From positions 567,558-631,557 of the forward strand of contig DASPLQ010000012.1 in NCBI GenBank assembly GCA_035627515.1: a stretch of 64,000 bases of DNA, written 5' to 3'. The position numbers and the translations under genes were made by a program. This document shows positions 3,507 to 48,993 of the stretch, piece by piece. The notes beneath the pieces are model-generated. The model was not told the origin of the DNA and made no database searches. It saw nothing but the letters and a program-made list of their open reading frames with translations. This DNA comes from Vitreimonas sp. (GTDB lineage: Bacteria; Patescibacteriota; Microgenomatia; UBA1400; PJMF01). Each line of letters begins with the position of its first letter. Position 1 is the first letter of the stretch.

Positions 3507-5251
3507 TGCAACCACACCCTATGATGTGGTCAAACTTTCCTTTATCCGGCATCATTTTCGTGATTGCCATCTTCTTTGTTTTACCCTTTCTGGTGACTGT
3601 CGTTCTTCCAGCCTGGTTAGTACCTATGATCATGCGCTGGGTGCTGAATAGACAGCCTCGTTATGATTTACCGTCTCTAAAACCGTTCATGTTAAGCTTG
3701 ATGGGCTTAGCCATTGCGGCTAACTTTTTCTGGGATTACGTCATTTTTAATAACATTTATTATGAATGGGATCGCATTTTTTTGCCGTATACCTTTCTAT
3801 GGCATGAAACACCATCTTTAGGTATGGGGCCAAATTGGCTAGCTGACGGGTGGGAATTAAAACATTTATTTGCTGCGTGGTTACTCATAACTGTGGCCAT
3901 TTATGTGACATCAGCCCTGATTGCGGCGTACCGGGCCCGACATCACCATCATCGGGTGCGGTATCACAAAATTTTAATTGGGTCGGTATTATTGCTGAGC
4001 TTAGCTAGTTTGACCTTGCCACCCGTAGTGATGCGAGGGATTGCTTTATTATGGAATGGCCCAGCTAATCTGAATTATGAGGAAGTCAACGTCTCCTGCC
4101 GGCCATCCGAAGCGCCTCAACCACGTGTATTATTTACCAATGGCCAAGAAGAGTGGGTGACAGAACTTGATGGGTCTCATCAACGTCCCGCTTTTGATAA
4201 ACATTTGCAACTGCGTAGCATCTCGGATTATTTGTCGCCTGATGACTCAATGGCAGCCATTTTATGGGGACAGGACCTGTGGATTTATTGTCTCAACACT
4301 GAGGGAGCACTCAAGATTTCACTGCCCGTCTTTGATAAATTATATGGTCCAGGGGCACCACGAAGCTTCCCATCGTGGTCACCGGATGGTACAGAAATGG
4401 CGATGAATAACAAGGGCGATTTACTACTCATTAATCTGGCCAGTAAAACTACCCAGGTGCTAAAAGCTCAAATCGCGTGGCGAGATAACCACGTCGATTT
4501 GCGTTCTAAAAATCGCGATAAGATGTTAGCGCCATATGAATATGGTGATGCCTATTGGAGCCGAGATAATTTTATTTACTACACTCGTTTTGAAGGTGAT
4601 ACCGTGAAGCTTAACAAGCTTAATCCCACCACTAATGAAGAGCAAACCGTATATGAGGCAGCGCACCCCATTTATATCAATGGTGGTAGTCCCACTGGGG
4701 AGTGGTTAGCTCTGTCTGAGTATGATTGGTCCGCACAGCGTTCAACTACCTCACCGCTGAATAAAAAAGTACTGCTGAATACGAAAACGCTGGCTTTATT
4801 AACTGAGTTTCCCACTGGTCCCCAACCAGATTTTGGGGTGCCGCTAGGGGAGATCATTTGGTCACCATCGGGTAAGTACATGGCTCAAAACCACGGGAAT
4901 ATGCTGCAAACCAGTGGCTTTGAAGGTCCCTCAGTGCCGGTAGTGAGTTTTGAGGAAGAACATTATTACTCTGTGACTTACAAAGTGGATACTGCCCTCG
5001 GTAAAAAAGGTATTGTTTTAGATGGAGAGACCTTAGCGGTGGAGCTGAAAGATTTTGTAGATGACACGCATGTGTTAGTTAAAATTATTATTACTGAAGG
5101 TTCATTGATGAACCGAGCTGGCCAACCTCGCCAAATCAATGCTATCTTGGATATTAAGGCGGAAGAAATGCAGATTTTGCATGATTACCCTTATCGCAGT
5201 TTTGATGAACCATCAGTTGCGCGTTTAGAGCCACTAGCAGTAATTAGGTAG
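3506..5251 (+). CDS. membrane-anchored beta-propeller protein (PD40/TolB-like repeats)
   Basis: About five N-terminal TM helices and a His-rich loop; C-terminal repeats such as SWSPDGTEMA and IIWSPSGKYMA typical of PD40/WD40-like propellers. Confidence 0.5.
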   Translation: MQPHPMMWSNFPLSGIIFVIAIFFVLPFLVTVVLPAWLVPMIMRWVLNRQPRYDLPSLKPFMLSLMGLAIAANFFWDYVIFNNIYYEWDRIFLPYTFLWHETPSLGMGPNWLADGWELKHLFAAWLLITVAIYVTSALIAAYRARHHHHRVRYHKILIGSVLLLSLASLTLPPVVMRGIALLWNGPANLNYEEVNVSCRPSEAPQPRVLFTNGQEEWVTELDGSHQRPAFDKHLQLRSISDYLSPDDSMAAILWGQDLWIYCLNTEGALKISLPVFDKLYGPGAPRSFPSWSPDGTEMAMNNKGDLLLINLASKTTQVLKAQIAWRDNHVDLRSKNRDKMLAPYEYGDAYWSRDNFIYYTRFEGDTVKLNKLNPTTNEEQTVYEAAHPIYINGGSPTGEWLALSEYDWSAQRSTTSPLNKKVLLNTKTLALLTEFPTGPQPDFGVPLGEIIWSPSGKYMAQNHGNMLQTSGFEGPSVPVVSFEEEHYYSVTYKVDTALGKKGIVLDGETLAVELKDFVDDTHVLVKIIITEGSLMNRAGQPRQINAILDIKAEEMQILHDYPYRSFDEPSVARLEPLAVIR

Positions 5252-5257
5252 CAGCTC

Positions 5258-6466
5258 ATGGTAACTACACTTTTTCCCTTCTCACATCTTCGCAACATCG
5301 CGTTGTTTTATGTCTTGAGCGCTGTCTACAACGCGTGGGTAGTGGCTGGGGTGTGGGTATTTGTGTGGGGACGATTCATGACTAAGACCCAAATTGGAGT
5401 TTCTGATGCCTTTACCTTTGCGATTGGTTTTTTGGTGGAGTTACCTTCGGGGGTGATGGCCGATATCATCGGTCGCAAAAAGGCAATTGTGATTGGCAAT
5501 GTGCTGTTAATGGTGGGTAATCTGTTGATTGCTGTCAGTAGCTCTTTTTTTAGCATTACGGGCTGGTATTTAGTCTGGACAATCGGGTATGCATTTCAAT
5601 CAGGAGCCACTGAAGCGTTAGCCTACGACACTCTGCGCCAGGCTGGTCACGAAAAAGAGTGGTCCCGAGTGATGGCAACTGCCATGACGATCTCACGTAT
5701 TTCGACTCTAGTTTCTACTGCCGCCGGTGGGTACTTGTTTATGTACTGGTTCAGGTTGCCATACCTTGTGTTTGGTTTAATTAGCATTATTGGCGTGTTA
5801 GCAGCGTTATCACTCAAAGAAATCAAAGTCTCTAAAGTCATTAATACATGGTCATGGCGCAGTTATGTGACTCAAATCAAAGATGGGGTGGCGGTGTTAG
5901 TGCGGCCACAGATTTTACCGATTGCCCTCGTGTCACTGACAATGATGGGCATTGGGTATATGTATAACTGGGGCTTAGTGAGACCGCTGACCGGAGAGCG
6001 CTTTGGCTATACACCAGAAGCGTACTCTTTGTTATTAGGAGTGATCTCAGTTGCCGGCATCATTGCTTTGACTGTGTTTACTCGTCTCCAACATCGTTTT
6101 AAAACTGAGCTTTCGATCCTGATTCTAGCTTTAGCTTATGCTCTCAACTTCGCGTTATTAAGTGGGTCTTATCACTGGCTAATCGGTGGAGGCGTGATGA
6201 TATCATTAGCCGTCTGGTTGCTGTATATCGATGTCTTATTTTCACAATTTATAAACCTCCACACTCGGGAAGAGCACCGGGCTACAACCTTGTCGACTGT
6301 CGCTCTCTTCACGCGGCTGCCATATGTGGTGTTGGCGATAGTGATTGGTCGGTTAGCTGATAATAATCTGGTGGCACTCTATACTTTGACAGTCGGATGT
6401 GTGGGCATTATGGTTTGGATAGTAGCACTGGCTTTATATTGGAGATCAAGAAAACTTACGTCTTAA
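5258..6466 (+). CDS. MFS transporter
   Basis: 12-TM topology; MADIIGRKKAIVIGNVLLMVG resembles the MFS loop 2-3 signature. Confidence 0.6.
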   Translation: MVTTLFPFSHLRNIALFYVLSAVYNAWVVAGVWVFVWGRFMTKTQIGVSDAFTFAIGFLVELPSGVMADIIGRKKAIVIGNVLLMVGNLLIAVSSSFFSITGWYLVWTIGYAFQSGATEALAYDTLRQAGHEKEWSRVMATAMTISRISTLVSTAAGGYLFMYWFRLPYLVFGLISIIGVLAALSLKEIKVSKVINTWSWRSYVTQIKDGVAVLVRPQILPIALVSLTMMGIGYMYNWGLVRPLTGERFGYTPEAYSLLLGVISVAGIIALTVFTRLQHRFKTELSILILALAYALNFALLSGSYHWLIGGGVMISLAVWLLYIDVLFSQFINLHTREEHRATTLSTVALFTRLPYVVLAIVIGRLADNNLVALYTLTVGCVGIMVWIVALALYWRSRKLTS

Positions 6467-6932: not shown

Positions 6933-7796
6933 ATGCATATTTTACGCGACGCCTTACTCAGCTTTACCCAAAGCCTTCGCGATGCTGGCAAAGCCAATGC
7001 TACTGTCATTGCTTATAGTAAGGATATCGAGCAGCTCATCGATTACTTGTCTACCCAAGGTAAAACTGAGGCGGCTCAAGTCACTTCTGATGACATTGAT
7101 CAGTTCAAAGAAACTCTCAAAAAACAACGCTATACCAGCAAATCTATCTCACGCAAAATTAACTCTATCAAAGGTTTTTTCCGTTATTTGATTACTAACT
7201 CGGTGTTGGAGGAAAATCCAGCTGAGGTCATTGTCCACCCTAAATTTGATAACTCACCACCTCGTATTTTGTCTAAGTTAGAGTACCGCGCTTTGCGCGA
7301 TGCTTGCCGTGGTGACTCACGGATGTCAGCGATTGTAGAGTTATTGCTCCAGACCGGGATGCGGATTAGTGAGTTAGCGGCTTTGCAATCCACCGATGTC
7401 GATTTTGAGCGCAATATTATGTACATCAAAGCGCAAAACTCTCGTCCGGCTCGCAAAGTACCGATGAATACCGCTGCTAAAAATGCCCTCATGGACTACT
7501 TACAAATTCGGCCTCGTGCTCGCGAAAAAACGTTGTTTTTAACTAAGACCTGTCGGCCCTTTTTAGTTCGGAACATTCGGACTGCTATTGATCGTTACTT
7601 CCGCTTGGCAGGTATCAAAGACGCTAAAGTCAATGACTTGCGCCATACGTTTATTGTGGAACAACTTAAAGCAGGCACACCGCTGGTGTATATTTCTCAA
7701 TTAGTTGGTCACAAACGTATCACGACTACCGAAAAATATCTTAAATTGATCGAAGCTCCTGACATGAATCCTCAAGTTCAAATTGAGGAACTGTAA
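6933..7796 (+). CDS. tyrosine site-specific recombinase (XerC/XerD family)
   Basis: N-terminal SAM-like core-binding domain; catalytic R...HxxR...Y pattern (LRHTF ... GHKRITTTEKYL). Confidence 0.7.
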   Translation: MHILRDALLSFTQSLRDAGKANATVIAYSKDIEQLIDYLSTQGKTEAAQVTSDDIDQFKETLKKQRYTSKSISRKINSIKGFFRYLITNSVLEENPAEVIVHPKFDNSPPRILSKLEYRALRDACRGDSRMSAIVELLLQTGMRISELAALQSTDVDFERNIMYIKAQNSRPARKVPMNTAAKNALMDYLQIRPRAREKTLFLTKTCRPFLVRNIRTAIDRYFRLAGIKDAKVNDLRHTFIVEQLKAGTPLVYISQLVGHKRITTTEKYLKLIEAPDMNPQVQIEEL

Positions 7797-10702: not shown

Positions 10703-11455
10703 TTATTCTTTTACTTGTTCACCAATTCCATTCCATAACTGTTCAAAAACACTTTTTTCAAAAGTCGCAATTTGAGGGTGATCGATGATGGTGCCATTAA
10801 GAGCGTCGTACGCGACGAAGGCAACTTTGTTGCCAAAGATAAGTTTATCTAAATGATGATTAGAAGGTTGTTGCTGACTGACGAGAATCTGGTGCGTGTC
10901 ACTGTAAAACCGTTCAATATATTCTAAGTGATCAACATCCGGAGTCACAATTTCGCGCATAGTGATATTCAGATTAGTTACCTCTGCCATGTATTTGTCA
11001 TAAATATATTCTTTGAGTGGAGGATGTAACGGTTGTTCATACCCTGAACACATCACTAAGATCTCATCAGCTCGTAAACTTTCTTCTAAAATGGCTTTAA
11101 TTCCTTGCCAGCCTTCAAAAAATCTGACAACGGGTTTGTGGGGTGATTGGTTATATAAAGCCATCAGCTCGGGTAATTGGTTAGAGGTGGTTTCTGCCAT
11201 TGTTTGCAGCTCAGCCACTTTTTCTTCAATCAACATATATAACTTGTGGGGATCATTGGCAGTGAGATAGGTTTTTTTACCGATGACTGTTTCGGAAACG
11301 AGTCCTAGAATTTTAAGTTGATTGAGCAGTAGATAGCAGGTAGTGCGGGGTAAGCGGGTTTTATCGGCCACATGCTGGACAGTGTCAGTCCCGAGCTCGA
11401 GGAGAGTTTTATAAACAAGGGTTTGTTCAGGAGTTAACGTTGATATTTTTGTCAT
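10703..11455 (-). CDS. TrmB-family transcriptional regulator
   Basis: N-terminal wHTH (LTPEQTLVYKTLLELGTDTVQHVADKTRLPRTTCYLLLNQLKILGLV) followed by a TrmB-like C-terminal domain. Confidence 0.5.
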   Translation of the reverse strand: MTKISTLTPEQTLVYKTLLELGTDTVQHVADKTRLPRTTCYLLLNQLKILGLVSETVIGKKTYLTANDPHKLYMLIEEKVAELQTMAETTSNQLPELMALYNQSPHKPVVRFFEGWQGIKAILEESLRADEILVMCSGYEQPLHPPLKEYIYDKYMAEVTNLNITMREIVTPDVDHLEYIERFYSDTHQILVSQQQPSNHHLDKLIFGNKVAFVAYDALNGTIIDHPQIATFEKSVFEQLWNGIGEQVKE

Positions 11456-12086: not shown

Positions 12087-14012
12087 ATGGCCATTAAAAA
12101 AGATCAACCCACCTCCGATAACACCCCTAAAAATAAATCTTCCCGTCCTTTTTGGGAGACGCCTTTTAATCTTAATACCTTCATGAACAAAGGTTTGTTA
12201 TATGTCTTAATCGGCTTATTGTTTTTGCCCTTCCTCTACAGTTTGTACGGTGGTAATCGTACTAATCAGATTACCCTGAGTCAGCTAGTTCGTGATGTGC
12301 GTGAGAATAAAGTAGAGCGCATTGAAGTGGCCGGTTCACAACTACAAGTTTTTTACAAAGACCAAACTAAAAAGATTTCTCGCAAAGAAGATGGTCAAGA
12401 AGTATTGAATGTTCTGCGTAGTTCTAATATTGATCTAGGCAGTGTTGATTTGAAAGTGCGAAATTTGACCCTCTCAGAGATGGCGTGGCAGTTAGCCTTA
12501 AACATCTTGCCGGTAGCCTTAATGGTAGGTTTGTTCTTAGTTTTCTTGCGTCAAATGCGCGGCACTCAAGACGGATTAATGGGAATAGGTCGGAGTAAAG
12601 CTCGAGTGTTTGTCAAAGGCAAACAAGATGTTAAGTTCAAAGATGTGGGTGGTATGAATGAAGCCAAACAAGAGCTGGAAGAGATTGTCGATTTCTTAAA
12701 GAATCCAAAGAAATACACTAAAGTTGGAGCGCGGACACCGAAGGGCGTATTGTTAGTTGGTCCAGCAGGAACTGGTAAAACGCTCTTAGCCCGGGCTGTG
12801 GCCGGTGAAGCCAATGTGCAGTTTCTCTCTATTGCCGGTTCGGAATTTATGGAAATGTTAGTGGGTGTGGGTGCATCGCGGGTGAGAGATTTGTTCTCGA
12901 CTGCCAAAAAATTAGCACCCTCGATTATTTTTATTGATGAAATTGATGCTATTGGCCGAATGCGCGGTCATGGCAGCATGGGTGGGCACGATGAGCGTGA
13001 ACAAACGCTAAACCAAATCTTAGTGGAGATGGATGGTTTTACTCAAAACGATAATGTGATTGTGATGGCGGCCACTAATCGTGGTGACATGCTTGATCCC
13101 GCCTTAGTACGTCCTGGTCGGTTTGATCGACGGGTGACGGTTAGTTTGCCTGATTTGGAAGAGCGGAAGTATATCTTGAGCATTCATGCGCTTAATAAAC
13201 CTTTTACTGCGGATGTGAACTGGGAACGTGTGGCCAAACGTACAGTCGGTTTCTCAGGTGCAGATTTGGAAAATATGTTGAACGAAGCTGCTATTGCCGT
13301 AGCTCGAGAAAATCGTGATCATATCAACATGCTTGATATCGAAGAAGCGTCTTTGAAAGTGAAGTTGGGCCCTAGTAAAAAGCGCTTACAAGATGAACTA
13401 GAGCGGAAAATGACTGCGTATCATGAAGCTGGTCACGCGATTATTGCTCACGTCTCACCACAAGCTGATCCTGTCCATCGCATCTCGATTGTGTCTCGTG
13501 GCCAGGCCTTAGGTTTTACATTGACACCACCTGAACGCGATAAAGTCCAAACTACTAAATCTGAATTATTAGATGAGATCGCAGTCTTGCTAGGTGGGCG
13601 CGCGGCCGAGCAACTCATTTTTAATGAATTGACTGCCGGAGCCAGCTCTGACATTGATAAAGCCACCCGGATAGCGCGCGCCATGGTGATTGATTACGGT
13701 ATGAGTAAGTTAGGCCCGATGAACTTTGGTCCTCAATATGAAAACTCGAGTTACAGTCGCTCCTGGGGTGAACCGATGACGATTTCTGATCGCTTACAAG
13801 AACAAGTCGACTTCGAAGTGACAGCTTTCATTGCTGAAGGTGAGAAGCGAGCCATGACCTATCTGAAAAAACACATCAAACAGTTACATGGGGTTTCTGA
13901 ACGGTTATTAGAAGTGGAAACAGTGGATACGGATGAGTTCACCCAATTGATGGGTATTCCTAAAGCCAAGCTTGGCGATGTCCCTCTGAAGAACAAGCCC
14001 ACAAAAGCTTAA
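12087..14012 (+). CDS. ftsH: ATP-dependent zinc metalloprotease FtsH
   Basis: Two N-terminal TM segments; AAA+ Walker A GPAGTGKT; Zn-binding HEAGHA motif. Confidence 0.9.
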
Positions 14013-15006: not shown

Positions 15007-16119
15007 ATGAAAAAATTAAAAGTGGCTTTGGCTCACGATTACTTGATTGATTACGGTGGAGCTGAGCGAGTTTTAGAAGCTCTGCATGAAGTTTTCCCGG
15101 AGGCTCCGGTGTATATTGCTTTCAAAAATGAAGACAGTTTGGGTATTCATTGGCGGCGCTTTAAAGACTGGGATTTACGCGAAAGTTGGATTACGAGGTT
15201 ACCGTTTTATAAACGTTTATTTTCACCGCTTCGAATTTGGGCCCATCGCTATTTTGCGAGCTTTGATTTATCTGAATATGACGTGGTGATTTCCTCCTCC
15301 AATGCGTACATGGCCAAAGCCGTGGAGGTGCCCAATGGAGTTCATATTTGTTATTGTCATACGCCGCCACGCTCGCTCTATGGCTATAGCACCATGAGCA
15401 ATTGGCGGAGTAACCCAGTTTTTCGCGTGGTGGGGAGTTTGATTAACCATTATGTGCGGGTGATCGACGTTAAAGTGGCACAACAAGTTGATTATTTTAT
15501 TGCTAACTCTGAAGAAATTGCGCAGCGGATTCAAAAATTTTACCGACGAGATTCTGAAATTATTTATCCGCCTGTCAATATCTCTGCTCAACCACCCTCA
15601 AAAAAGCAAGAGGGTGAGTATTACCTATACGTTAATCGTTTGGCTTTAGCTAAGCATCCCGAGCTGGCAGTTCAGGCTGCAACCGAGTTGCAGTTGCCAC
15701 TAAAAGTAGTTGGGACTGGGGTGATGTTGGATAAGTTGCGTGAGTTGGCTGGTCCTACAGTCGAATTTTTGGGAGCAGTGGATGATGAAAAACTGCATGA
15801 GCTATATGCAGGCGCCAAAGCCCTGCTGTATCCAGTAGAAGATGAGGATTTTGGCATTGTGCCGGTAGAGGCGATGGGTCATGGAGTGCCGGTGATTGCT
15901 CATCGCTCGGGTGGTCCCCGCGAAACTATTCAAGATGGAGTCAGTGGCGTGTTTTTCGATGAGTTGAGTGTAGAGGGGTTGAAGGCTGCCATTAAAGTGG
16001 CGGATAAAAAGAAATTCGATGCTGTTAAGATTTACCAATTAAGTAAACGTTTTTCCAAAGCCGAGTTCCAAAAAAAGATTGTTAAGTTTGTGGAGCGGTG
16101 TGTGAAAGAGCGCGGGTAA
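15007..16119 (+). CDS. glycosyltransferase family 4
   Basis: GT-B fold with EX7E motif region EDEDFGIVPVEAMGHGVPVIA. Confidence 0.8.
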   Translation: MKKLKVALAHDYLIDYGGAERVLEALHEVFPEAPVYIAFKNEDSLGIHWRRFKDWDLRESWITRLPFYKRLFSPLRIWAHRYFASFDLSEYDVVISSSNAYMAKAVEVPNGVHICYCHTPPRSLYGYSTMSNWRSNPVFRVVGSLINHYVRVIDVKVAQQVDYFIANSEEIAQRIQKFYRRDSEIIYPPVNISAQPPSKKQEGEYYLYVNRLALAKHPELAVQAATELQLPLKVVGTGVMLDKLRELAGPTVEFLGAVDDEKLHELYAGAKALLYPVEDEDFGIVPVEAMGHGVPVIAHRSGGPRETIQDGVSGVFFDELSVEGLKAAIKVADKKKFDAVKIYQLSKRFSKAEFQKKIVKFVERCVKERG

Positions 16120-16135
16120 GTTTTTGACTTGTAGG

Positions 16136-16240
16136 TTGGCTGAGGTATGTCTCTGAACACTCTTAAAAGTCCGTGGCATAAATATGGCATTTTTGTGTAC
16201 TAAATATGCCACTCTGAAAATGAGTGTGCTGAAGACAGGT
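16136..16240. repeat. intergenic repeat family, copy 1 (5' module only)
   Basis: GGCTGAGGTATGTCTCTGAACACTCTTAAAAGTCCGTGGCATA ... TATGCCAC, with GTGGCATA/TATGCCAC inverted arms; homologous to copies at 21377, 47784 and (downstream module) 29058. Confidence 0.7.
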
Positions 16241-16361
16241 GCCAACGGTGAGGAGGAAGGAAAAAGTAACGGTGCCTCTTTTGTGCCTCATGAGTATTTT
16301 TCTTAAAGGTGATGATAAGAGCTCTTAACTGTGAGACACATTTCTTAATGACACAACGAGG

Positions 16362-18068: not shown

Positions 18069-18103
18069 TTGACAAATTAGCAGTAAGTATCTAAGATTGC
18101 TAA
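18069..18103 (+). promoter_or_regulatory. hrcA promoter (-35 TTGACA 18069-18074) overlapping a CIRCE-like operator TTAGCAGTA-N9-GATTGCTAA (18077-18103)
   Basis: Inverted repeat TTAGCA...TGCTAA with a 9-bp centre matches the CIRCE consensus TTAGCACTC-N9-GAGTGCTAA at 14 of 18 arm positions; sits directly upstream of hrcA-grpE-dnaK. Confidence 0.55.
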
Positions 18104-18123
18104 TATAGGAGTGCAACACACCC

Positions 18124-19364: not shown

Positions 19365-21329
19365 ATGGCAAATACTACAGGCAAAATTATTGGTATTGAT
19401 TTAGGGACCACTAACTCGGCGATTGCTGTGATGGAAGGTGGTTCACCCAAAGTCATCCCGACCGCAGAAGGCCGGAACACTTTTCCCTCAATTGTATCAT
19501 TTAAAGGTGATGAGGTGACCGTAGGTGACGTGGCTAAACGCCAAATGGTGTTAAATCCCAAAGCCACTGTTAACTCAGTCAAACGGTTCATGGGTCGTAA
19601 GCTCAAAGATAAAGCTGTCCAAGCGGCTATCAAACACGTTGCTTACACTATTACCGAAGGTAAAGATGGCATGGCCGTGGTAGAGGTCAACGGTAAAAAA
19701 TACACTCCTCAGGAAATTTCCGCCAAGATTTTAGCCAAAGCTAAAGCTGACGCTGAGTCATATTTAGGTTCACCGGTCACCCGCGCAGTGATTACGGTGC
19801 CGGCTTACTTTGATGACTCCCAGCGCCAAGCCACGAAACAAGCTGGTGAGATCGCAGGCTTGACGGTGGAGCGGATTGTCAACGAACCGACCGCCGCCGC
19901 CTTGGCTTACGGTTTAGATAAAAAAGGCAGTGCTACCATTGCTGTTTATGACATGGGTGGTGGTACCTTCGACATCTCTATTTTAGAAATTGGTGACGGC
20001 GTATTTGAAGTCAAATCTACCAACGGTGACACCTTCTTAGGAGGCGATGACTTTGATAACAAAATTATTGACTGGATTATTGCTGAATTTAAGAAAGATC
20101 AAGGCAAAGATTTAGCCAAAGATTCCCAAGCTTTGCAACGCGTCAAAGACGCTGCTGAGAAAGCTAAGATTGAGTTATCCTCAGCTCAACAAAGTGAGAT
20201 TAACTTGCCGTTTATTGCTCAAGGTGAGGACGGCCAAGCTTTGCACCTGACGATGAGTATGAGTCGCGCCAAGCTCGAAGAGTTAGTAGACGAGTTAATC
20301 ACACAAAGTTTTGAGCCGGTCCAAAAAGCCCTCAAAGACGCGGGTGTAAAAGCCAGCGACATCAATGAAGTGGTGTTAGTAGGCGGCATGACACGGATGC
20401 CTAAGATTCAAGAAGAAGTCAAAAAATTCTTTGGCAAAGAGCCGCATAAGGGCGTTAACCCAGATGAAGTCGTTGCGATTGGTGCCGCTATTCAAGCCGG
20501 TGTGATTGGTGGCGATGTGACCGATGTGGTCTTGCTGGATGTAACACCTTTGACATTGGGTATCGAAACACTTGGTGGTATCCGGACGCCATTAATCGAG
20601 CGCAACACCACTATCCCGACCAGTAAATCCCAAGTCTTTTCTACAGCCGCCGATAACCAAACTCAGGTCGAGATCAATGTCCTGCAAGGTGAGCGTGAGA
20701 TGGCTGCTGATAACAAGAGCTTAGGCCGGTTCATTTTGGATGGTATCCCACCTGCGATGCGTGGTATGCCTCAAGTAGAAGTGACCTTTGATATCGACTC
20801 GAATGGTATCTTGAATGTCACTGCCAAAGATAAAACTTCTGGCAAAGAGCAAAAAATTTCTATCCAAAACTCCACCAATTTATCGGAAGAAGAAGTGGAG
20901 CGGATGAAGGCCGATGCTGAGAAACACGCTGAGGAAGACAAACTCAAAAAAGAAACGATCGAAGCCAAAAACCAAGCCACCAGTGTTGCTTTTGAGCTGG
21001 AAAAACAACTCAAAGAGTATGGTGACAAGGTCAGCGATGACGATCGAAAAGAGATCGAAGAGAATGTCAAAAAACTCAAAGAGTTAGCGCAAAAAGATGA
21101 TGCTACTAAAGATGAGTTGAGCAAAGCTACTGAGGAAACCTTCAAGTCTGCCCAAAAGCTCGGCGAAGCGATGCAAAAAGCTAATGCTGCTAATCAAACT
21201 GCTGGCGCAGCCGGTGGTCCAGAAGCTGCCGGTGCCGCTGATGAAGCTGGTGCAGGTGGTTCTGAGGGCAAAAAAGGTAAGAAAAAAGCTGATAAAGACG
21301 AAGCCGAAGAAGGTGAAGTCGTAAATTAA
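19365..21329 (+). CDS. dnaK: molecular chaperone DnaK (Hsp70)
   Basis: [18 protein letters not shown], and a substrate-binding domain plus Gly/acidic tail. Confidence 0.95.
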
Positions 21330-21343
21330 GCATTAAGTCCATT

Positions 21344-21375
21344 GAAAAAAGCGGAGGTCGTATGGCTTCCGCTTT
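21344..21375 (+). terminator. intrinsic terminator downstream of dnaK
   Basis: GCGGAGG...CTTCCGC stem followed by a T-run. Confidence 0.5.
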
Positions 21376-21376
21376 T

Positions 21377-21826
21377 TGGTTTTGCGGGTTTTTTATTTCT
21401 CTGTAAGGTGTTTCTAGGTTAGGCGGCGGGTAGTTTTTTTGCATGGGGGCTGGGTGAGGTATGTGTCTAAACACCCATAAAAGTCCGTGGCATATTTGTG
21501 CCACGATCGTGCACTAATTATGTCACTGTAGAAATGAGGTTCTGATGAGGAGTGTGTCAGCGAGAGGGTCATTTGTTGAGCTCATAGTTTTTGGCTTGTA
21601 TGAATAGTGGCAAAAATCATACAATTGACACAGAACTTCCTTTTAAGAAAGAGACCTTAGCGGGCACCCCCCTTCACAAACCTCTTTTTTATTCATTGTG
21701 CGTTTATTAACAAAAACCGCACAACCTTCACAAAGTTCACTTTTTGAGCAACCACTATCAAACAAAAAAAGATCAGCTCCTTTTTTCACACCCCTTGAGA
21801 AACCTTCTTAAAGGCCGTTCAACATG
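21377..21826. repeat. intergenic repeat family, copy 2 (most complete, about 450 bp, modular)
   Basis: Contains module A (TTTCTCTGTAAGGTGTTTCTAGG ... GGTGAGGTATGT...AAAAGTCCGTGGCATA...TATGTCAC) and module B (TTGTATGAATAGTGGCAAAAATCATACAA hairpin ... TTATTAACAAAAA ... CTTAAAGGCC); aligned by eye to the copies at 16136, 29058 and 47784. Confidence 0.75.
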
Positions 21827-22104
21827 AGCCATCACTGCAGAAGTTCCCCTGGACACACGTCATTGCAGTCAAAACGTACAGTTTGTACACACCCCAGGCA
21901 GACTTTTGCAGCGTTCTTGTTATAATCACGATTACAAGGAGTGGTATGCCAAAGAAACCAGAGATTTTTCGCCCGGGGTTTAACAGAGGTCATGGAGGTC
22001 GAGAATGACACTCAACCCTGGCAATTGGCAGACATAAATACCTTCTTATCCAAGCGTTTTAAACTACTTTGGCCCGGCATTAAATACGTTATAATCACCA
22101 CCAC

Positions 22105-22779
22105 ATGAAATTATCGGTCATCGTCCCAGTCTATAACGAAGAAGCCACAGTGCGAGAGATTTTGCAGCGTTTAATTGCGATCCGTGACGTCAAAGAAATT
22201 GTGGTGGTCAATGATGGTTCCACTGACCGCACCGCCCGCGAGCTCAAAAAAATCAAACACCGCAAACTCAAGTTGTTTACCAAAGAGAACGGGGGTAAAG
22301 GCAGTGCCATTCGTTATGGCCTTACGAAAGTGACGGGCGATTATGTGCTGATTCAAGATGCTGATTTGGAGTATGATCCCGCCGATATTCCGATGCTGGT
22401 CGAGCCGATCAAACGCGATCGGGCCCACGTGGTCTATGGCTCACGCTTTTTGGGACCCCACTCTAATCTCCTTTTTTGGCATCGCAAGGGCAATGATTTT
22501 CTCAACTTCGTCACTAATGTCTTATATAACACCACTTTGTCCGATATGGAGACGTGTTACAAAGTCATGCCGACACAGCTATTTCGGCAATTAAACATCA
22601 CTGCCAATAAGTTTGATATCGAACCCGAAATTACCTGCAAATTACTGAAACGGGGAGTGTATATCTATGAAGTGCCCATTAGTTATGTGGGACGCGACTT
22701 CACCCAAGGCAAGAAAATTACCTGGCGCGATGGCTTGGACGCCTTGTGGGTCATCCTGCGCCATCGCTTTTTACCCTAG
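22105..22779 (+). CDS. glycosyltransferase family 2 (polyprenol-phosphate sugar transferase-like)
   Basis: VIVPVYNEE ... NDGSTD ... DxD (QDADLEYD) motifs of GT-A. Confidence 0.8.
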   Translation: MKLSVIVPVYNEEATVREILQRLIAIRDVKEIVVVNDGSTDRTARELKKIKHRKLKLFTKENGGKGSAIRYGLTKVTGDYVLIQDADLEYDPADIPMLVEPIKRDRAHVVYGSRFLGPHSNLLFWHRKGNDFLNFVTNVLYNTTLSDMETCYKVMPTQLFRQLNITANKFDIEPEITCKLLKRGVYIYEVPISYVGRDFTQGKKITWRDGLDALWVILRHRFLP

Positions 22780-27105: not shown

Positions 27106-27190
27106 GAAAAAATTCAAATTCCAAAATATAAAATTCCAAAATAATGGAATTTAGATTTTTGAAATTTGAGATTTGGAATTTTAAACCATT
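27106..27190 (+). promoter_or_regulatory. dyad-rich AT spacer between nusA and infB (AAATTCCAAA x2 / TTTGGAATTT)
   Basis: Direct and inverted repeats visible in sequence; could form alternative hairpins within the operon transcript. Confidence 0.3.
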
Positions 27191-28763: not shown

Positions 28764-29033
28764 ATGGCATTAGCCAAAAACCAAAAAACACAAATCATCA
28801 AGGATTATGCCTTGTTTGAAGGTGACACTGGGTCTCCAGAGGTCCAAATCGCCTTATTAACTGCTTCAGTCCAAGAATTAACTGAACATCTCAAAAAACA
28901 TAAAAAAGACAACCACTCTCGTCGTGGTTTGCTGAAACAAGTCTCCAAACGCCGCCGGTTGCTGAACTTCTTGCTTGCCAAAAGTGAAGAGCGCTACCGC
29001 AAGTTGATCGAGCGGTTGGGTTTGACTAAATAA
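28764..29033 (+). CDS. rpsO: 30S ribosomal protein S15
   Basis: 89-aa protein with the conserved S15 helix-bundle sequence ([14 protein letters not shown] ... RRGLL); ATG 28764 chosen within the longer track ORF. Confidence 0.85.
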
Positions 29034-29057
29034 ACTCTGATTTCTAACGAATCTGGT

Positions 29058-29325
29058 AGTAAGAGGGTCTTTTATTGAGTTCATATTTTTTTGTTTGTAT
29101 GAATATTGGCAAAAATCATACAACTGACACAGAACTTCCTTTTAATAGAAAGACCTTAGAGCGTAATTGCCTTCATCAACCTATTTTTTATCCATTGTGC
29201 GATTATTAACAAAAATGGCACAACCTTCAGAAAATTCACTTCCTGAACAAACACTGTCAAACAGAAAAAGATAAAGCGCTTTTTTCAGACCCCTTAAGAA
29301 ATCTTCTTAAAGGCCTTCCATTTAC
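29058..29325. repeat. intergenic repeat family, copy 4 (module B only)
   Basis: AGAGGGTCTTTTATTGAG ... TTGTATGAATATTGGCAAAAATCATACAA ... CTTAAAGGCC; near-identical to 21560-21826. Confidence 0.7.
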
Positions 29326-29576
29326 ATCTCCAGAATCATGTTATAATCTGCCTCAGTATTAACAGTGAGCTTGGTAAATCTGAGTTTTTCGGGTTCTAAG
29401 TTTTAAATCTACGTTTCAAGTACACGTTCTAAGTTCTGTCTTTCAGTGTGTCACAAGAGAGAACCTAGGCTTAAGATTTAGAGCCCCTCTGTGCGCTCAT
29501 GCACCTCGTTGTTCGGATTTCCCTCACGTATTTAATAAAAGGCCCTCGGCTGTAACTGCTGGGGTGTAATTATCGT

Positions 29577-31919
29577 ATGTCATATCCGACATATTCCAAA
29601 ACCTATACCACTGATCTCCACGTGGGTGACAAAGTCATTCACATCGAGATTGGTAAATTTTCTGAACAAGTCACGGCGGCTGTTTTAGCGAGCTGTGGTG
29701 ATACCGTGGTCCACACGACTGTAGCCCTTGGTCGCGAAGTAGATTTAGGTTACTTTCCGCTGTCAGTGGAGTACGCTGAAAAATTATTTGCCAGTGGCAT
29801 CATCAAAGGTTCTCAATGGGTGAAACGTGACGGTCGGCCCACTGATGACGCGATCTTAAAAGGCCGCGTGATCGACCGGACTATGCGCCCGCTTTTTCCT
29901 GAGGGCATCAAAAATGAAGTCCAGATTATTAACACCGTTTTTTCCTTTGATAAAGTCAACAGTCCTGACATGATTGCTTTGGTCAGTACCGCTGTAGCGC
30001 TGTCGGTTTCTGCAATTCCATTTGATGGTCCGGTAGCTGGTTTGCGCATTGGTTACCGCAAGAGCGATCAACAATACATCATTAACCCGACCTTAGAAGA
30101 GATAGACGAACTCGACATGGACTTAATTGTTTCTGGCACTGGTGAGTCAATCGTGATGGTGGAGTCAGGTTCAAATGAAGTCCCTGAAAGTGTGATTATC
30201 GATGGCTTCAAAGAGGCCCAAACCATCCTGGGTAAGGTCTGTGGAGAAATCCAAGCTATTGCTGACGCAGTTGGTCGACCTAAGTTTACGGTTAAAGAAG
30301 CTGTCGTGGCCGCCACTGATGGCCCATCTTTAGCTGAAATCGTCGAGAAAAAGTTTGCTAAACAACTCAAGGAATTAGTCAGCCTGGAAGGTAAACTGCT
30401 CAAAGATGAGGCTCGCGAAGTTGTGGCTGGAATCTTAGCTAAGCTCAATGAAGGCAAGGCTGACGATGCTGAAGACTTGGTCACCGAAAAAGAGTTGGGC
30501 TCAGTCCTTCATGACCTGACCGCCAAAGTGGCTCGAGAAATGATCTTGAAAGAAGGCATCCGGCCTGATGGTCGTGGTACCGAAGAAATTCGCCCAATCT
30601 GGTGCGAAGTCGATGTCTTCCCTCGAACTCATGGTTCAGCCATGTTTAAACGCGGTGCTACTCAAGCTGTGACGATCACGACGTTGGGTTCACCATCGTT
30701 GGGTCAACATATCGAAGATCTTGAAGGCGAAAGCGTCCGTCACTACATGCACCACTACAATATGCCTCCGTATGCTTCAGGTGAAGCTGGCCGGTTTGGG
30801 GCGCCAAAGCGTCGTGAAATTGGTCATGGTGCGTTAGCAGAACGAGCGTTGTTGGCAATGATCCCTTCTCAAGAAGAGTTCCCGTATACCATCCACGTCG
30901 TGACTGAAATTTTGAGTTCCAATGGCTCAACTTCGATGGCTTCTGTCTGTGGTTCCACCATGTCATTAATGGCAGCCGGTGTGCCTCTTAAGAAACCAGT
31001 GGCTGGTATCGCCATGGGTTTGATCACCGATGGCGCTGGTAAGTACGTGGTGCTCTCTGACATCCAAGGTGTGGAAGATCACATTGGTGACATGGATTTC
31101 AAAGTGGCTGGTACCGATGAAGGTGTCAACGCTTTACAAATGGACATCAAAATCAAAGGTGTGCCGTTGGAAGTGATGGTCCAAGCTCTCGAACAAGCCA
31201 AAGCTGGTCGCTTACACATCATGGGTAAAATGATGACGGCGATTGATGCGCCTCGTAAGCAAATTTCCGAGTTTGCGCCGAAGATTGTCCAGGTAATCAT
31301 TCCCGCTGATAAAATCGGCGAGTTAATTGGCCCAGGTGGTAAAAACATCAAAGCTATCATTGCTGATACTGATGCTGAGATCGAAGTTGATGAAGACGAA
31401 GAACGCAATGTGGGCGTGGTTAATATCACTTCACCTGACCAAAGTAAAATTGATGCTGCAGTGGCTCGAGTCACTGCCATCACTCGCACCATCGAGATTG
31501 GTGATGAGTTTGATGGGGAAGTAGTTCGCATTGAGGCCTACGGAGCTTTTGTGAACATCCTGCCTAATCGCGATGGATTAGTCCACGTCTCAGCCATGTC
31601 AACTGAGTATGTGGGTGATCCTAACCAGGTGGTGCAGATGGGTCAAACCGTTCATGTCCGTGTCAGTGACATCCAACCTGATGGGAAGATCAAGCTGAGT
31701 ATGCTTACGCCTGAGGAAGAGGCTGCAGCTAAAGCGAATCGACCTGAGCGTAGCGAAGGCGGAGATCGCGGTGGCGACCGAGGCGGCTTTGGTGGCAGAC
31801 CTTCATTCCGCGGTAGTCGCGACGGCGGTCGGGGTGGCTCACGCGGCGGTAGCCGTGGCGGGTTTGGCGGTAGCCGAGGTGGAGATCGCGGCGGTTCACG
31901 CGGCGGTGGACGCTATTAA
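29577..31919 (+). CDS. pnp: polyribonucleotide nucleotidyltransferase (PNPase) with a C-terminal RGG/GAR-rich tail
   Basis: Two RNase PH domains, KH (IGPGGKNIK) and S1 domains; the terminal roughly 55 aa are (GGDRGG/SRGG) repeats. Confidence 0.9.
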   Translation: MSYPTYSKTYTTDLHVGDKVIHIEIGKFSEQVTAAVLASCGDTVVHTTVALGREVDLGYFPLSVEYAEKLFASGIIKGSQWVKRDGRPTDDAILKGRVIDRTMRPLFPEGIKNEVQIINTVFSFDKVNSPDMIALVSTAVALSVSAIPFDGPVAGLRIGYRKSDQQYIINPTLEEIDELDMDLIVSGTGESIVMVESGSNEVPESVIIDGFKEAQTILGKVCGEIQAIADAVGRPKFTVKEAVVAATDGPSLAEIVEKKFAKQLKELVSLEGKLLKDEAREVVAGILAKLNEGKADDAEDLVTEKELGSVLHDLTAKVAREMILKEGIRPDGRGTEEIRPIWCEVDVFPRTHGSAMFKRGATQAVTITTLGSPSLGQHIEDLEGESVRHYMHHYNMPPYASGEAGRFGAPKRREIGHGALAERALLAMIPSQEEFPYTIHVVTEILSSNGSTSMASVCGSTMSLMAAGVPLKKPVAGIAMGLITDGAGKYVVLSDIQGVEDHIGDMDFKVAGTDEGVNALQMDIKIKGVPLEVMVQALEQAKAGRLHIMGKMMTAIDAPRKQISEFAPKIVQVIIPADKIGELIGPGGKNIKAIIADTDAEIEVDEDEERNVGVVNITSPDQSKIDAAVARVTAITRTIEIGDEFDGEVVRIEAYGAFVNILPNRDGLVHVSAMSTEYVGDPNQVVQMGQTVHVRVSDIQPDGKIKLSMLTPEEEAAAKANRPERSEGGDRGGDRGGFGGRPSFRGSRDGGRGGSRGGSRGGFGGSRGGDRGGSRGGGRY

Positions 31920-33232: not shown

Positions 33233-34087
33233 ATGCACGTTTCTGCTCTGCAAACATCGAGCGGCATGTTTTGTGTGCTGGCCCTCGACACCACTCCTAC
33301 TGTGGCTAACGAGCTCGGTTTAGATCTAGACCTAGAGCCCAACCAACAGTTTTTTGCTGCCCTCAATGAAGAGTTACTCAAACACCTTTCACCGATGAGT
33401 TCAGGGGTAGTCCTTGACCCCATTTTCACTTTGCCTCTTCTCTCGCACAAAGCTAATCAGCCGGGCTTAGCTCTCCGCCTGGAGCAGCTGACTCCCGGGA
33501 CTGATCCATTGGTAATTCCCACCATCATTCCTAATTGGGGTGTGGAGCACATCTCGCAAAATTATGGTGTGACGAAGGTTGAAATGTATTACCACCCTGA
33601 GGAAATGGAAGCATTGGCCAAAAAACAACTCATAGCTGAGATCAATGATTTTTGTGACCTCCAGCACTCTCATCTTCTCCTTAAACTCATGATTTACACC
33701 CAACCCGATGATGGTGAACAAGGTCTGAGTATGGCCGAGGTGCAGCTCGAGGCTGTGACTGAGCTCCGGTCTAACTGCCAACTGCTTGTCTTGCAGCCCC
33801 CTCCTGATTCACTGACCGCGGCTACCCTGACTGCTGAGCTGGATGTTCCCTGGCTAGTCAGTCTGGAAGGTTTAGAGTATGCCACTGCCAAAGACATTAT
33901 GCGCCAGGCGCTGGAAAGTGGAGCCAAAGGGGCCTATTTAGGTGATGTGGTGTGGCGTGATATCCGTAACCTCCGCCAGGCCGATGCTTCACTTGATTGG
34001 CCAGCCATCCAAACTTTCATTGCTACAGAGGCCCGCGATCGAATGATTGAGTTACGAAGGATCATTGATGAGTTTGCCAACATTTGA
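33233..34087 (+). CDS. hypothetical protein (possibly a TIM-barrel/aldolase-like fold)
   Basis: 284-aa ORF; the N-terminal FCVLALD segment weakly resembles class I aldolase families; no firm motif. Confidence 0.35.
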   Translation: MHVSALQTSSGMFCVLALDTTPTVANELGLDLDLEPNQQFFAALNEELLKHLSPMSSGVVLDPIFTLPLLSHKANQPGLALRLEQLTPGTDPLVIPTIIPNWGVEHISQNYGVTKVEMYYHPEEMEALAKKQLIAEINDFCDLQHSHLLLKLMIYTQPDDGEQGLSMAEVQLEAVTELRSNCQLLVLQPPPDSLTAATLTAELDVPWLVSLEGLEYATAKDIMRQALESGAKGAYLGDVVWRDIRNLRQADASLDWPAIQTFIATEARDRMIELRRIIDEFANI

Positions 34088-34099
34088 TAGACTCAGCTC

Positions 34100-34393
34100 A
34101 TGCTCAAACTTATCAAAGATCTGTCCATGTTTATCATTGCTTTAATTGAAGTGGTGTTGGTGTTTCGCTTTGTCTTGAAATTACTGGCTGCTAATCCTCG
34201 GGCAGGTTTAGTGATGTGGGTTTATGAAACTTCTGAGCCCTTGTTGCAACCATTTCTAGCTATTTTCCCGGCTCCTTCTGTGCGAGGGGGATTTGTGCTG
34301 GAGTTTAGCACTTTGTTTGCCATCTTTGCTTACGCTGTGATTGGGTATATTTTGCAAGAACTGCTCGAGATCATAATCCGCAAGAGTAAATAA
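34100..34393 (+). CDS. YggT-family membrane protein
   Basis: Two TM helices with FRFVLKLLAANPRAGLV...EPLLQPF characteristic of YggT/Ycf19. Confidence 0.5.
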   Translation: MLKLIKDLSMFIIALIEVVLVFRFVLKLLAANPRAGLVMWVYETSEPLLQPFLAIFPAPSVRGGFVLEFSTLFAIFAYAVIGYILQELLEIIIRKSK

Positions 34394-39051: not shown

Positions 39052-39099
39052 GACATCTACTCAGCTCTTGAACCAACTTCCTGGTAAAATATAACCTCT

Positions 39100-40527
39100 A
39101 TGGCCAGGTTTGCGCAAAAACATACCGATAAGTTTGATCCTCAAGCAATTGATGCGTATGAGCATGGGTACTCGTTTTCAACGAGTGGGTATTCGTATAT
39201 CACGCAGCCAGGTTTGAATGAGGGCGTTGTTAAAGAGATTTCTCACCTCAAAGGTGAGCCGGAGTGGATGCTCAACTTTCGATTGAAGGCCTACGAGCAG
39301 TTCCAAGCCAAGCAGATGCCTCCCTGGGGAGCTGATTTATCTGGCATTAACTTTGAGGCGATTCGTTATTACTTGCGACCGACAGATCAAGCGGTGAAAT
39401 CGTGGAATGACGTTCCGGCCGATGTCAAAAAAACCTTTGATCGTTTAGGCATTCCCGAAGCCGAGCGCAACGTTTTAGCTGGTGTCAAAGCTCAGTATGA
39501 CTCCGAAGTGGTGTATGGTTCTTTGAAACAGGTTTGGGCGAAAGATGGCGTGGTTTTCTTGTCGATGGATGAGGGTTTGAAGGAGTATCCCGATTTAGTT
39601 AAAGAATATTTTGGCAAAGTCATTCCCAGTGGCGACAACAAATTTGCCGCTTTAAATAGTGCGGTTTGGTCAGGTGGCTCGTTTGTGTACGTGCCCAAAG
39701 GTGTGCACGTTAAGATGCCACTGCAAACGTACTTCCGGATTAATGCCGAAAATGCTGGCCAATTTGAACGGACGTTAATCATTGTTGATGAAGGTGCCTC
39801 GGTTCATTATGTTGAGGGCTGCACCGCGCCGAACTTCTCATCCAACTCTTTGCACTCTGCCGTTGTCGAAATCTTTGTCAAAAAAGGTGCTCGCTGCCAA
39901 TACACTACCATCCAAAATTGGTACAAAAATATTTACAACTTAGTCACTAAACGCGCCTACGTAGAAGAAGAAGGTGAGATGGTGTGGACAGACTTCAACA
40001 TGGGTTCCAAAGTGACGATGAAGTATCCAGGGTTTATCCTGGCTGGCAAAGGTGCCCGTGGTGAGACGTTATCTATGGCGCTGGCTGGTAAAGGCCAACA
40101 CCAAGACACTGGTTCCAAAGCTATTCACTTAGCACCGTATACCAGTTCTACTATTATTTCTAAATCGATTAGTAAAAGCGGCGGCCGCACCAGTTATCGT
40201 GGGTTAGTTAACGTCGGTCCCAAAGCGTATGGTAGCAAAAATACCGTCATTTGTGACGCGTTGTTGCTTGATCCTTACTCACAATCGGACACCTATCCTG
40301 TCGATAAAGTTTTTAACTCTAATGTCCAAGTCCAGCACGAAGCCACAGTTTCCAAAATTGGTGATGACCAACTCTTTTACTTAATGAGTCGTGGTGTCAC
40401 CGAAGAAGATGCGCGCAAGTTGATTGTGAATGGTTTTATTGAAGGTTTGGTACGCCAATTGCCTCTCGAATACGCCGTAGAAATGAACCGCCTGATTGAT
40501 TACGAAATGGAAGGTAGTATTGGGTAA
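39100..40527 (+). CDS. sufB: Fe-S cluster assembly protein SufB
   Basis: Conserved SufB core and C-terminal FYLMSRGV...LIVNGF motif. Confidence 0.9.
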   Translation: MARFAQKHTDKFDPQAIDAYEHGYSFSTSGYSYITQPGLNEGVVKEISHLKGEPEWMLNFRLKAYEQFQAKQMPPWGADLSGINFEAIRYYLRPTDQAVKSWNDVPADVKKTFDRLGIPEAERNVLAGVKAQYDSEVVYGSLKQVWAKDGVVFLSMDEGLKEYPDLVKEYFGKVIPSGDNKFAALNSAVWSGGSFVYVPKGVHVKMPLQTYFRINAENAGQFERTLIIVDEGASVHYVEGCTAPNFSSNSLHSAVVEIFVKKGARCQYTTIQNWYKNIYNLVTKRAYVEEEGEMVWTDFNMGSKVTMKYPGFILAGKGARGETLSMALAGKGQHQDTGSKAIHLAPYTSSTIISKSISKSGGRTSYRGLVNVGPKAYGSKNTVICDALLLDPYSQSDTYPVDKVFNSNVQVQHEATVSKIGDDQLFYLMSRGVTEEDARKLIVNGFIEGLVRQLPLEYAVEMNRLIDYEMEGSIG

Positions 40528-42884: not shown

Positions 42885-42922
42885 CGATAATGAAATGCCC
42901 TTCATCCTGATACAATACCACT

Positions 42923-47516: not shown

Positions 47517-47729
47517 ATGGCAAATGGCAAAGCTTACAGCTATACCAACAAAAAGGGTCAAACCTACTACTTGCACACCCGCCAAGTTAAATTGAAAAAT
47601 GGCCGCGTGCAAACCATCTACTTCTTCGCTCGTGATATCCGCGAAGGTTCTATGGAAGCCGTTCCTGCTGGTTACACCGTCGTTGAAACTCAACGCACTG
47701 GTATGCCTGTCTTGAAAAAAGCTGCTTAA
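47517..47729 (+). CDS. small basic hypothetical protein (70 aa)
   Basis: Perfect AAAGGAG RBS 7 nt upstream; strong intrinsic terminator immediately downstream. Confidence 0.5.
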   Translation: MANGKAYSYTNKKGQTYYLHTRQVKLKNGRVQTIYFFARDIREGSMEAVPAGYTVVETQRTGMPVLKKAA

Positions 47730-47754
47730 TTAGTAGCCCGATTTTGAACTTAAG

Positions 47755-47783
47755 CCCCTTCTCGCAAGAGAGGGGGTTTTTGG
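47755..47783 (+). terminator. intrinsic terminator CCCCTTCTC-GCAA-GAGAGGGGG followed by a T-run
   Basis: 9-bp stem (one G-U pair), tetraloop and T-run read directly from the sequence. Confidence 0.65.
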
Positions 47784-48085: not shown

Positions 48086-48127
48086 ATCAAGGTGTCTTTA
48101 CCCACCTTCATCAGGTAAAATACCTCT

Positions 48128-48986: not shown

Positions 48987-48993
48987 TCTGGCC

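Follow-up and report, generated by a model that had tools for sequence, protein, structure and literature searches.

The genes in the 64,000-nt stretch of DNA analysed here, referred to below as the window, lie almost all on the + strand and are tightly packed, and the question arises of what fills four unusually long intergenic regions among them. An earlier note had proposed that these regions share a mosaic repeat, and a repeat search together with blastn confirmed the proposal. The four gaps contain full or partly deleted copies of one element of about 445 nt, all four copies being on the + strand, and they are of common descent. The copies lie at 16112-16309 (copy 1), 21373-21816 (copy 2), 29046-29315 (copy 3), and 47777-48078 (copy 4), and are about 72-85% identical to one another (blastn E 1e-20 to 1e-69). 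Copies 2 and 3 align over 272 nt with 82% identity (21550-21821 with 29049-29320; blastn E 1e-69), and copies 2 and 4 align over 279 nt with 80% identity (21373-21644 with 47777-48049; E 1e-60). Copy 1 matches the A modules of both copy 2 and copy 4 over 124 nt (16112-16235; 76-78%, E ~1e-21), and the end of copy 4 (47992-48078) matches the tail of the second B unit in copies 2 and 3 (76-78%, E about 1e-13). A profile search (nhmmer --max) detected no fifth copy in the window, and no copies were found by profile search in the flanks, i.e., in 8.1 kb on the left (L083) and 9.7 kb on the right (L082). The copy number of four covers about 82 kb, namely the window and these two flanks, of a contig of about 1.41 Mb, and all four copies fall within 32 kb. 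The G+C content of the element is 33-42%, compared with 44% for the window.

The four copies differ in which parts they retain. Copy 2 (21373-21816) is the sole complete element and comprises a 5' block, the core of module A, two units of module B, and a 3' tail. It had been described as the most complete copy, with A plus the full module B, and both statements were correct, while its bounds are 21373-21816 rather than 21377-21826; blastn similarity to copy 3 continues weakly up to 21821. Copy 1 consists of the A core without its first ~48 nt and the 3' tail of B, both hairpin units of B being deleted. It had been taken for a copy with A only, which is not the case: the final ~50 nt of B, with CTTAAAGG among them, have their counterpart at 16259-16309, a match whose score was reached by 2-8 of 2000 shuffled sequences. 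The homology of copy 1 to A already begins inside GT4, in the final codons of this gene and its stop codon, and the copy sits between two convergent genes (GT4 and GH39). Copy 3 is a complete B, with units 1 and 2 and the tail, and lacks A. It starts 13 nt past the stop codon of rpsO (TAA, 29031-29033), with no terminator in between. Copy 4 contains a complete A and a single hybrid B unit, in which the hairpin of unit 1 (48001-48029) is joined to the tail of unit 2. It is also truncated at its 3' end, the 3' tail being absent and the sequence from 48079 on being unlike the B tail, and its start lies in the T-run of the terminator at 47752-47779. The modules of the last two copies had been described properly, but the copy numbers had been exchanged: the region 29034-29576 contains B only, and the region 47730-48127 contains A plus an internally deleted B.

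As only one copy is complete, each end of the element is defined by two or three sequences. The 5' end (TTTTTGGTTWTGCRGGTTTTTT...ATTTCTCTGTAAGGTGTTTCTAGG) is common to copies 2 and 4, where it directly follows two differing terminator stems. In copy 2 the 5' terminal block TTTTTGGTTTTGCGGGTTTTTTATTTCTCTGTAAGGTGTTTCTAGG (21373-21420, + strand) begins in the T-run directly past the stem of the dnaK terminator, and 44 of 46 of its nucleotides are identical in copy 4. This end is the best-kept part of the two copies, with 2/46 mismatches versus 27/135 (post hoc p about 0.007). The 3' end ...CTTAAAGG (...CTTCTTAAAGG) is common to copies 1, 2, and 3. A search of all four copies for terminal inverted repeats (seed 6) yielded internal hairpins alone. 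A target-site duplication was not found either at copy 2, the one complete copy, the flanks of which (...GGCTTCCGC and GTTCAACATG...) contain no direct repeat.

The core of module A (21421-21549, + strand) is made up of the conserved block TGAGGTATGT..AACAC..TAAAAGTCCGTGGCATA and a hairpin at 21487-21526 (+ strand), the arms of which, GTGGCATA and TATGTCAC, include one G-U pair. The module holds a conserved block of 40 nt and, in addition, a triple GTGGCAT motif. Module B is composed of two tandem units of ~98 nt, each with a T-run followed by a near-palindrome of 29 nt. Unit 1 (21550-21682, + strand) contains the hairpin TTGTATGA-N13-TCATACAA at 21596-21624, and its tandem paralogue, unit 2 (21683-21780, + strand), contains the hairpin TTGTGCG-N15-CGCACAA at 21696-21724. 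The stems of the two units differ by two compensated pairs. In the 3' tail (21765-21816, + strand), a weak A/U hairpin (AAAAAAG-N8-CTTTTTT) precedes CCTTGAGAAACCTTCTTAAAGG, the terminal hairpin, after which CC follows. The module strings that had been quoted previously, with the arms GTGGCATA/TATGCCAC and TTGTATGA/TCATACAA, are all present at the places given for them. The number of internal tandem subunits varies, with two B units in the full element, one hybrid unit in copy 4, and none in copy 1. Beyond the four copies, the hairpin motifs occur in the 64 kb at chance level only and are not enriched.

The element is non-coding, as had been claimed together with the non-synonymous character of its substitutions. 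Stop codons are present in all six frames, and non-synonymous differences between the copies far outnumber synonymous ones. Two short ORFs of a seemingly conserved kind were considered and rejected because their substitution patterns are neutral. The 18-codon ORF in A shares its start and stop among the three copies, but has undergone ~3 synonymous versus 12 non-synonymous changes. The 36-codon ORF in B (copies 2 and 3) has undergone 1 synonymous versus ~13 non-synonymous changes, and it is cut short in copy 4. In addition, 5.8 billion proteins were searched with a concatenation of every open six-frame translation from the four copies, in order to detect ORFs wrongly annotated over other copies or descent from a pseudogene; there was no match at E <= 0.01.

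At the RNA level, Rfam models gave nothing at gathering score in the window, and permissive scans of all four copies returned terminator-type noise only. Folding of the whole element is ordinary (z -1.1, -0.5, -0.9, and -1.0 for the four copies versus shuffled sequences), and the description "hairpin-rich" was thus overstated. Locally, two structures stand out, with z -3.9 for the B2 hairpin and z -2.8 for the A hairpin (-16 kcal/mol), while the B1 hairpin and those of the tail do not exceed shuffled sequence. Among the three copies of A, no compensated pair was found. The two compensated pairs of the B hairpin stem from the single split between B1 and B2, in few sequences. Consensus scans for a sigma-70-type promoter or a terminator shared among the copies were negative. 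The mismatches between copies 2 and 3 are uniformly distributed (longest identical run 21 nt, p = 0.53; dispersion p = 0.28), and the substitutions in module A are at most marginally clustered (p 0.02-0.13). Such a near-uniform distribution fits near-neutral decay.

Several other kinds of site were considered for the element and rejected. A CIRCE/HrcA operator was discarded, as the true CIRCE-like sites, found ahead of hrcA and groES, differ in sequence. A motif of the DNA-uptake-sequence type is not enriched in the window. By eye, a sigma-54 promoter in A does not hold up, since its spacing deviates by one and copy 2 lacks the GG. The defining features of a dif/Xer site, an attC site, and a rolling-circle nick-site hairpin are absent (by eye), and so are those of a group IIC intron (by eye and Rfam).

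The 80 best relatives of NusA are encoded in genomes of Patescibacteria, Candidatus Pacebacteria, and Microgenomates, the closest with 78-80% identity, and the gene order hrcA-grpE-dnaK-(GT2)-dnaJ-nusA-infB-rpsO-pnp is conserved in relatives. Because both the NusA relatives and the gene order match Patescibacteria/Pacebacteria, the GenBank label "Vitreimonas sp.", which denotes an alphaproteobacterium and under which the window proteins are recorded (HYD35013-HYD35025), is very likely wrong. The window corresponds to about 162.6-226.6 kb of the ENA contig k141_237778 (ERZ27252484). Neither A nor B was found in 80 related loci (about 1.3 Mb; blastn and nhmmer), and a comparable repeat native to these loci was not seen either. 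When 44 loci and the window were searched with a covariance model built from A, only the three known copies matched, and A is thus also absent from the 42 related loci among them (~0.7 Mb together with the window and its flanks). The A core GAGGTATGTNNNNNAACACNNNTAAAAGT, used as an exact pattern, had no match in the GTDB species representatives, and scans with this core and with the B1 hairpin found none in JGI metagenome contigs and IMG/VR; the source genome is apparently absent from all these collections. A blastn comparison of copy 2 with phage and plasmid collections returned nothing.

The relatives also reveal an empty site for copy 1. In two of them (L008 and L018) GT4 and its convergent neighbour GH39 run into each other with an overlap of 11-17 nt, whereas in the window the two genes are separated by a gap of 242 nt that is filled by copy 1. 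Copy 1 is therefore an insertion. The gap between dnaK and GT2 is 107-166 nt in L041, L009, and L018 versus 775 nt in the window. However, the gaps after dnaK and after rpsO range from 2 to 2235 nt among the relatives, and in L003 the gap after dnaK holds a gene, so that gap length alone is no proof of insertion at copies 2 and 3. A different arrangement was noticed in the infB-rpsO interval of one relative (L004, 12433-15062). In this interval of ~2.8 kb, a promoter-like box (TTATTGTGATATAAT) occurs three times and a terminator-like hairpin (CACCCCGCCTAA..GGGGTG followed by a T-run) four times, and the interval may be a tandem array of small transcription units.

All copies had been thought to follow intrinsic terminators. 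This is true for copies 2 and 4, but copies 1 and 3 start at the stop codons of GT4 and rpsO, respectively, and neither is preceded by a terminator there. The intrinsic terminator of dnaK (21345-21377, + strand) and that of a gene for 70 amino acids at 47517-47729 (47752-47779, + strand) belong to the flanks and not to the repeat, and their stems are unlike each other. Extended -10 boxes had been reported near copies 2 and 4. The first, TGTTATAAT at 21918-21926 (+ strand), is indeed located in the region 21330-22104, ~100 nt downstream of copy 2. The second, TGTTATAAT at 29339-29347 (+ strand), is found in the region 29034-29576, i.e., 24 nt downstream of copy 3, the numbering having been exchanged here as well; it is likely the pnp promoter. 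Both boxes lie outside the repeat. The same applies to all six TGNTATAAT boxes of the window, which are on the + strand and intergenic, to all its TATAAT boxes, and to the many TAnAAT boxes 6-10 nt before start codons.

The surroundings of the copies yielded further observations. At many genes a -10-like box (TAnAAT or GATAnnnT) ends 6-10 nt before the start codon without a Shine-Dalgarno motif, e.g., at 22087-22107, 34085-34102, 39083-39102, 42908-42925, 48113-48130, and 48979-48996, and leaderless mRNAs therefore seem to be common in this genome; other genes in the window use AGGAG or TAGGT instead. Between copy 2 and the GT2 gene (21918-22006), the strong extended -10 box TGTTATAAT precedes AAGGAG, and an ATG at 21947, 5 nt further on, opens an ORF of 19 amino acids, MPKKPEIFRPGFNRGHGGRE. 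At the matching position L004 has an ORF of 95 amino acids, of which the MPKKP start alone matches (E 0.02, tiny database), and the 19-aa ORF may be a remnant or a small gene. CIRCE-like inverted repeats are located upstream of hrcA-grpE-dnaK and of groES, TTAGCAGTA-N9-GATTGCTAA at 18070-18105 and TTAGCAGTC-N9-ATCTGCTAG at 563-592 of the left flank (L083). They would fit control by HrcA and are unrelated to the repeat. The C-terminal Arg/Gly-rich tail of PNPase (RGG repeats, ...GGDRGGDRGGFGGRPSFRGSRDGGRGGSRGGSRGGFGGSRGGDRGGSRGGGRY) is encoded by a tandem DNA repeat (D4, 31740-31919). Short A+T-rich tandem motifs are present just upstream of the infB start (GAAATTTRAGATTT-like, 27146-27190) and in a related locus, L005 (AGTAACTAAGTAAC-like; 5208-5269, 11099-11136, and 12647-12691). 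In this lineage they sit just upstream of infB, dnaK, and other start codons, and they may be translation-enhancer-like leaders. The window contains no multicopy protein families, and no tRNA or tmRNA genes were found in it. Its GC skew is positive throughout (+0.04 to +0.12), which identifies the + strand as the leading strand, so that all copies have the leading-strand orientation.

An independent assembly of the same organism was available for comparison, namely the Logan k=31 assembly of SRR7003767. It has 0 mismatches to the window at every junction that is covered. Its contigs cover all of copy 1, all of A in copy 2, and the parts of B that flank the breaks. They break inside B in copy 2 (21744-21773), copy 3 (about 29102), and copy 4 (about 48004), and the repeat thus fragments short-read assemblies. 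Copies 3 and 4 share an exact 31-mer. In B unit 2 of copy 2, Logan contigs end and start on the 30-mer 21744-21773, which has no twin in the window, and this hints at a fifth, closer copy elsewhere or at a strain variant.

How did this element come to occupy the four gaps? The earlier note had left a choice between a structured sRNA, a MITE-like mobile element, and a shared regulatory cassette, and it had named paralogous operons and a known RNA family as findings that would speak against it; in fact, the genes flanking the copies are not paralogues, and no Rfam family explains A or B. A mobile or dispersed repeat fits best, although its likeness to MITEs is reduced by the lack of terminal inverted repeats and target-site duplications. 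We regard the chances as about even that the element is a lineage-specific, non-autonomous dispersed repeat of the BOX/BIME kind with eroding copies. We think it unlikely that an intergenic segment was passively copied among nearby junctions by illegitimate recombination or gene conversion and then decayed. Passive spread would be in keeping with four copies within 32 kb and none in the flanking 18 kb, with the lack of inverted repeats, target duplications, and a transposase in ~82 kb, and with the neutral-looking substitutions. However, the copies have discrete 5' and 3' ends in common beside unrelated flanks, their orientation is identical in 4/4 cases, copy 1 occupies a junction at which the genes of relatives overlap, and the assembly break without a twin 30-mer hints at a copy elsewhere. 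That the copies are artefacts generated by mis-assembly is hardly credible: the source is a MAG and short-read contigs break in B, but the copies differ by about 16-29% and hence are not collapsed or duplicated reads, and the covered junctions agree without a mismatch in the Logan assembly.

Two further explanations assign a function to the element. Modules A and/or B could be functional RNAs, either paralogous small RNAs or structured UTR parts, e.g., processing or stabilising hairpins by rpsO-pnp and dnaK. The copies all run with the direction of transcription, copies 1 and 3 would be co-transcribed as they directly follow stop codons, the A and B2 hairpins surpass shuffled sequence, the B1 and B2 stems differ by two compensated pairs, and A contains the conserved block of 40 nt. 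Nevertheless, we rate this as quite improbable, and the structured sRNA in particular found no favour. Even permissive Rfam thresholds gave no match, and the element contains no conserved sigma-70-like promoter or terminator, though real promoters are strong here (TGNTATAAT, TAnAAT). Furthermore, the whole element folds in an ordinary way, substitutions are even, A shows no compensatory change in three copies, the compensated pairs of B represent a single split, and copies 2 and 4 lie downstream of strong terminators. Alternatively, the element could act at the DNA level, the 29-nt B palindromes (TTGTnnGnnTATT-N-AAAAAnCnnACAA) and the triple GTGGCAT in A being putative sites of a dimeric protein that would control GT2, pnp, and an Fe-S assembly gene. 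Three copies and both B units have retained near-perfect palindromes, and copies 2, 3, and 4 are upstream of + strand genes. But the distance from the palindrome to the next promoter or start varies (roughly 100-220 nt), copy 1, flanked by convergent genes, lacks the palindrome unit altogether, the rest of the window shows no enrichment of the motifs, and the CIRCE-like operators of hrcA and groES differ in sequence. In addition, the compensation between the stems of the units preserves the hairpin and not a fixed recognition sequence. The shared regulatory cassette is thus a weak proposal, and we consider it very unlikely.

For the dispersed repeat that we favour, the following course of events can be envisaged. 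A single non-coding repeat of ~445 nt would have entered the otherwise compact gene junctions of a Pacebacteria-like genome. It would be non-autonomous, with the mobilising enzyme encoded elsewhere, and would insert at the 3' ends of genes, right after a terminator stem or a stop codon, oriented with the leading strand and the upstream gene. Subsequent erosion by deletions would have cost copies 1 and 3 their 5' part, copy 4 its 3' tail, and copy 1 also its middle, and unequal recombination between the two tandem ~98-nt B units would have produced the hybrid unit of copy 4. We infer active transposition, rather than passive copying, and an enzyme that performs it; the missing inverted repeats and duplications and the clustering of the copies argue against transposition. 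A single-strand recombinase (HUH/Y1, IS200/IS605-type) or a site-specific one (IS110-like or tyrosine) would be in keeping with the strict orientation and with the lack of inverted ends and target duplications. A transposase or similar gene was not found in ~82 kb, where the sole recombinase is an ordinary Xer-like tyrosine recombinase (6933-7796). For neutral DNA of a small genome, copies with a divergence of about 16-29% are old, a possible hint that some use of them has been retained.

A bolder version of this reading would make the element a non-autonomous member of an undescribed class of mobile DNA in the CPR. Members of such a class would be locked in orientation, would lack inverted repeats and target duplications, would target DNA past terminators or stop codons, and would be mobilised in trans by an HUH or an RNA-guided (IS110-like) recombinase, with the A core as recognition or guide module. 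This idea is based on the orientation, the shared ends, and the terminator-adjacent placement, and we regard it as a long shot. The element is a new sequence of a known kind of feature. Genomes of the CPR/Patescibacteria are usually described as small, compact, and repeat-poor. The fact that a modular repeat fills several of the longest intergenic gaps indicates that such genomes continue to be shaped by selfish or duplicative DNA. Should the copies prove numerous across the genome, the repeat would be a marker for strain typing and a route to the enzyme that moves elements without inverted repeats in this phylum.

Comparison with known repeat families places the element as follows. Small non-autonomous MITEs such as Correia/NEMIS, RUP, and bcr1 resemble it in being non-coding and intergenic and in having deletion derivatives, and with ~445 nt and four copies in 82 kb the element is likewise small and multicopy. 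Unlike MITEs, it has no terminal inverted repeats or target-site duplications, and its copies share one orientation. The IS200/IS605-derived PATEs also lack inverted ends and target duplications, have an orientation tied to replication, and carry a hairpin near the 3' end. In the element all 4/4 copies are on the + strand in DNA with positive GC skew, a bias that is confounded with gene orientation and based on n = 4. In contrast to PATEs, the element has no matching 5' hairpin, its 3' hairpin directly adjoins the end rather than being set ~10 nt inward, copies 2 and 4 have no common 4-5 nt target on the 5' side (CCGC versus GGGG before the T-run), and no TnpA or TnpB gene is present in 82 kb. 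Group IIC introns insert after terminator hairpins, and ORF-less forms are known. The length of ~450 nt and the sense orientation of copies 2 and 4 directly past terminator stems are reminiscent of the latter, but the element has neither a GUGYG 5' end nor a domain V-like hairpin, and Rfam group II models matched neither 21300-22150 at E <= 10 nor any part of the window at gathering score. Truncated copies and a tandem duplication inside the element are also at odds with a ribozyme.

REP sequences are G+C-rich imperfect palindromes of 20-40 nt with a GTAG-type head that occur in hundreds of copies and are linked to RAYT transposases. The element shares with BIME/REP the mosaic combination of motifs after stop codons or operon 3' ends, the direction of transcription, and the hairpins. 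It is unlike them in that its modules are 100-180 nt long, A+T-rich, and few, and in that no RAYT was seen in 82 kb; within the 64 kb, its hairpin motifs are confined to the four copies or occur at chance level, and its G+C content is only 33-42%. The BOX element of Streptococcus pneumoniae reportedly has the structure boxA-boxB(n)-boxC. BOX elements are present in more than 100 copies per genome, and their outer modules are partly complementary and act like inverted ends. The modularity of the BOX type that had been noted earlier holds: both elements are non-coding, intergenic, a few hundred nt long, and modular, with variable internal tandem subunits, and in both incomplete mosaic copies are common. 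They differ in that the element described here has no terminal inverted repeat and four known copies in 82 kb. The likeness is one of architecture, and sequence homology would not be expected as the host phylum, Patescibacteria, is a different one. By kind, the nearest counterparts of the element are the mosaic repeats BOX and BIME; under a strict definition it does not count as a MITE.
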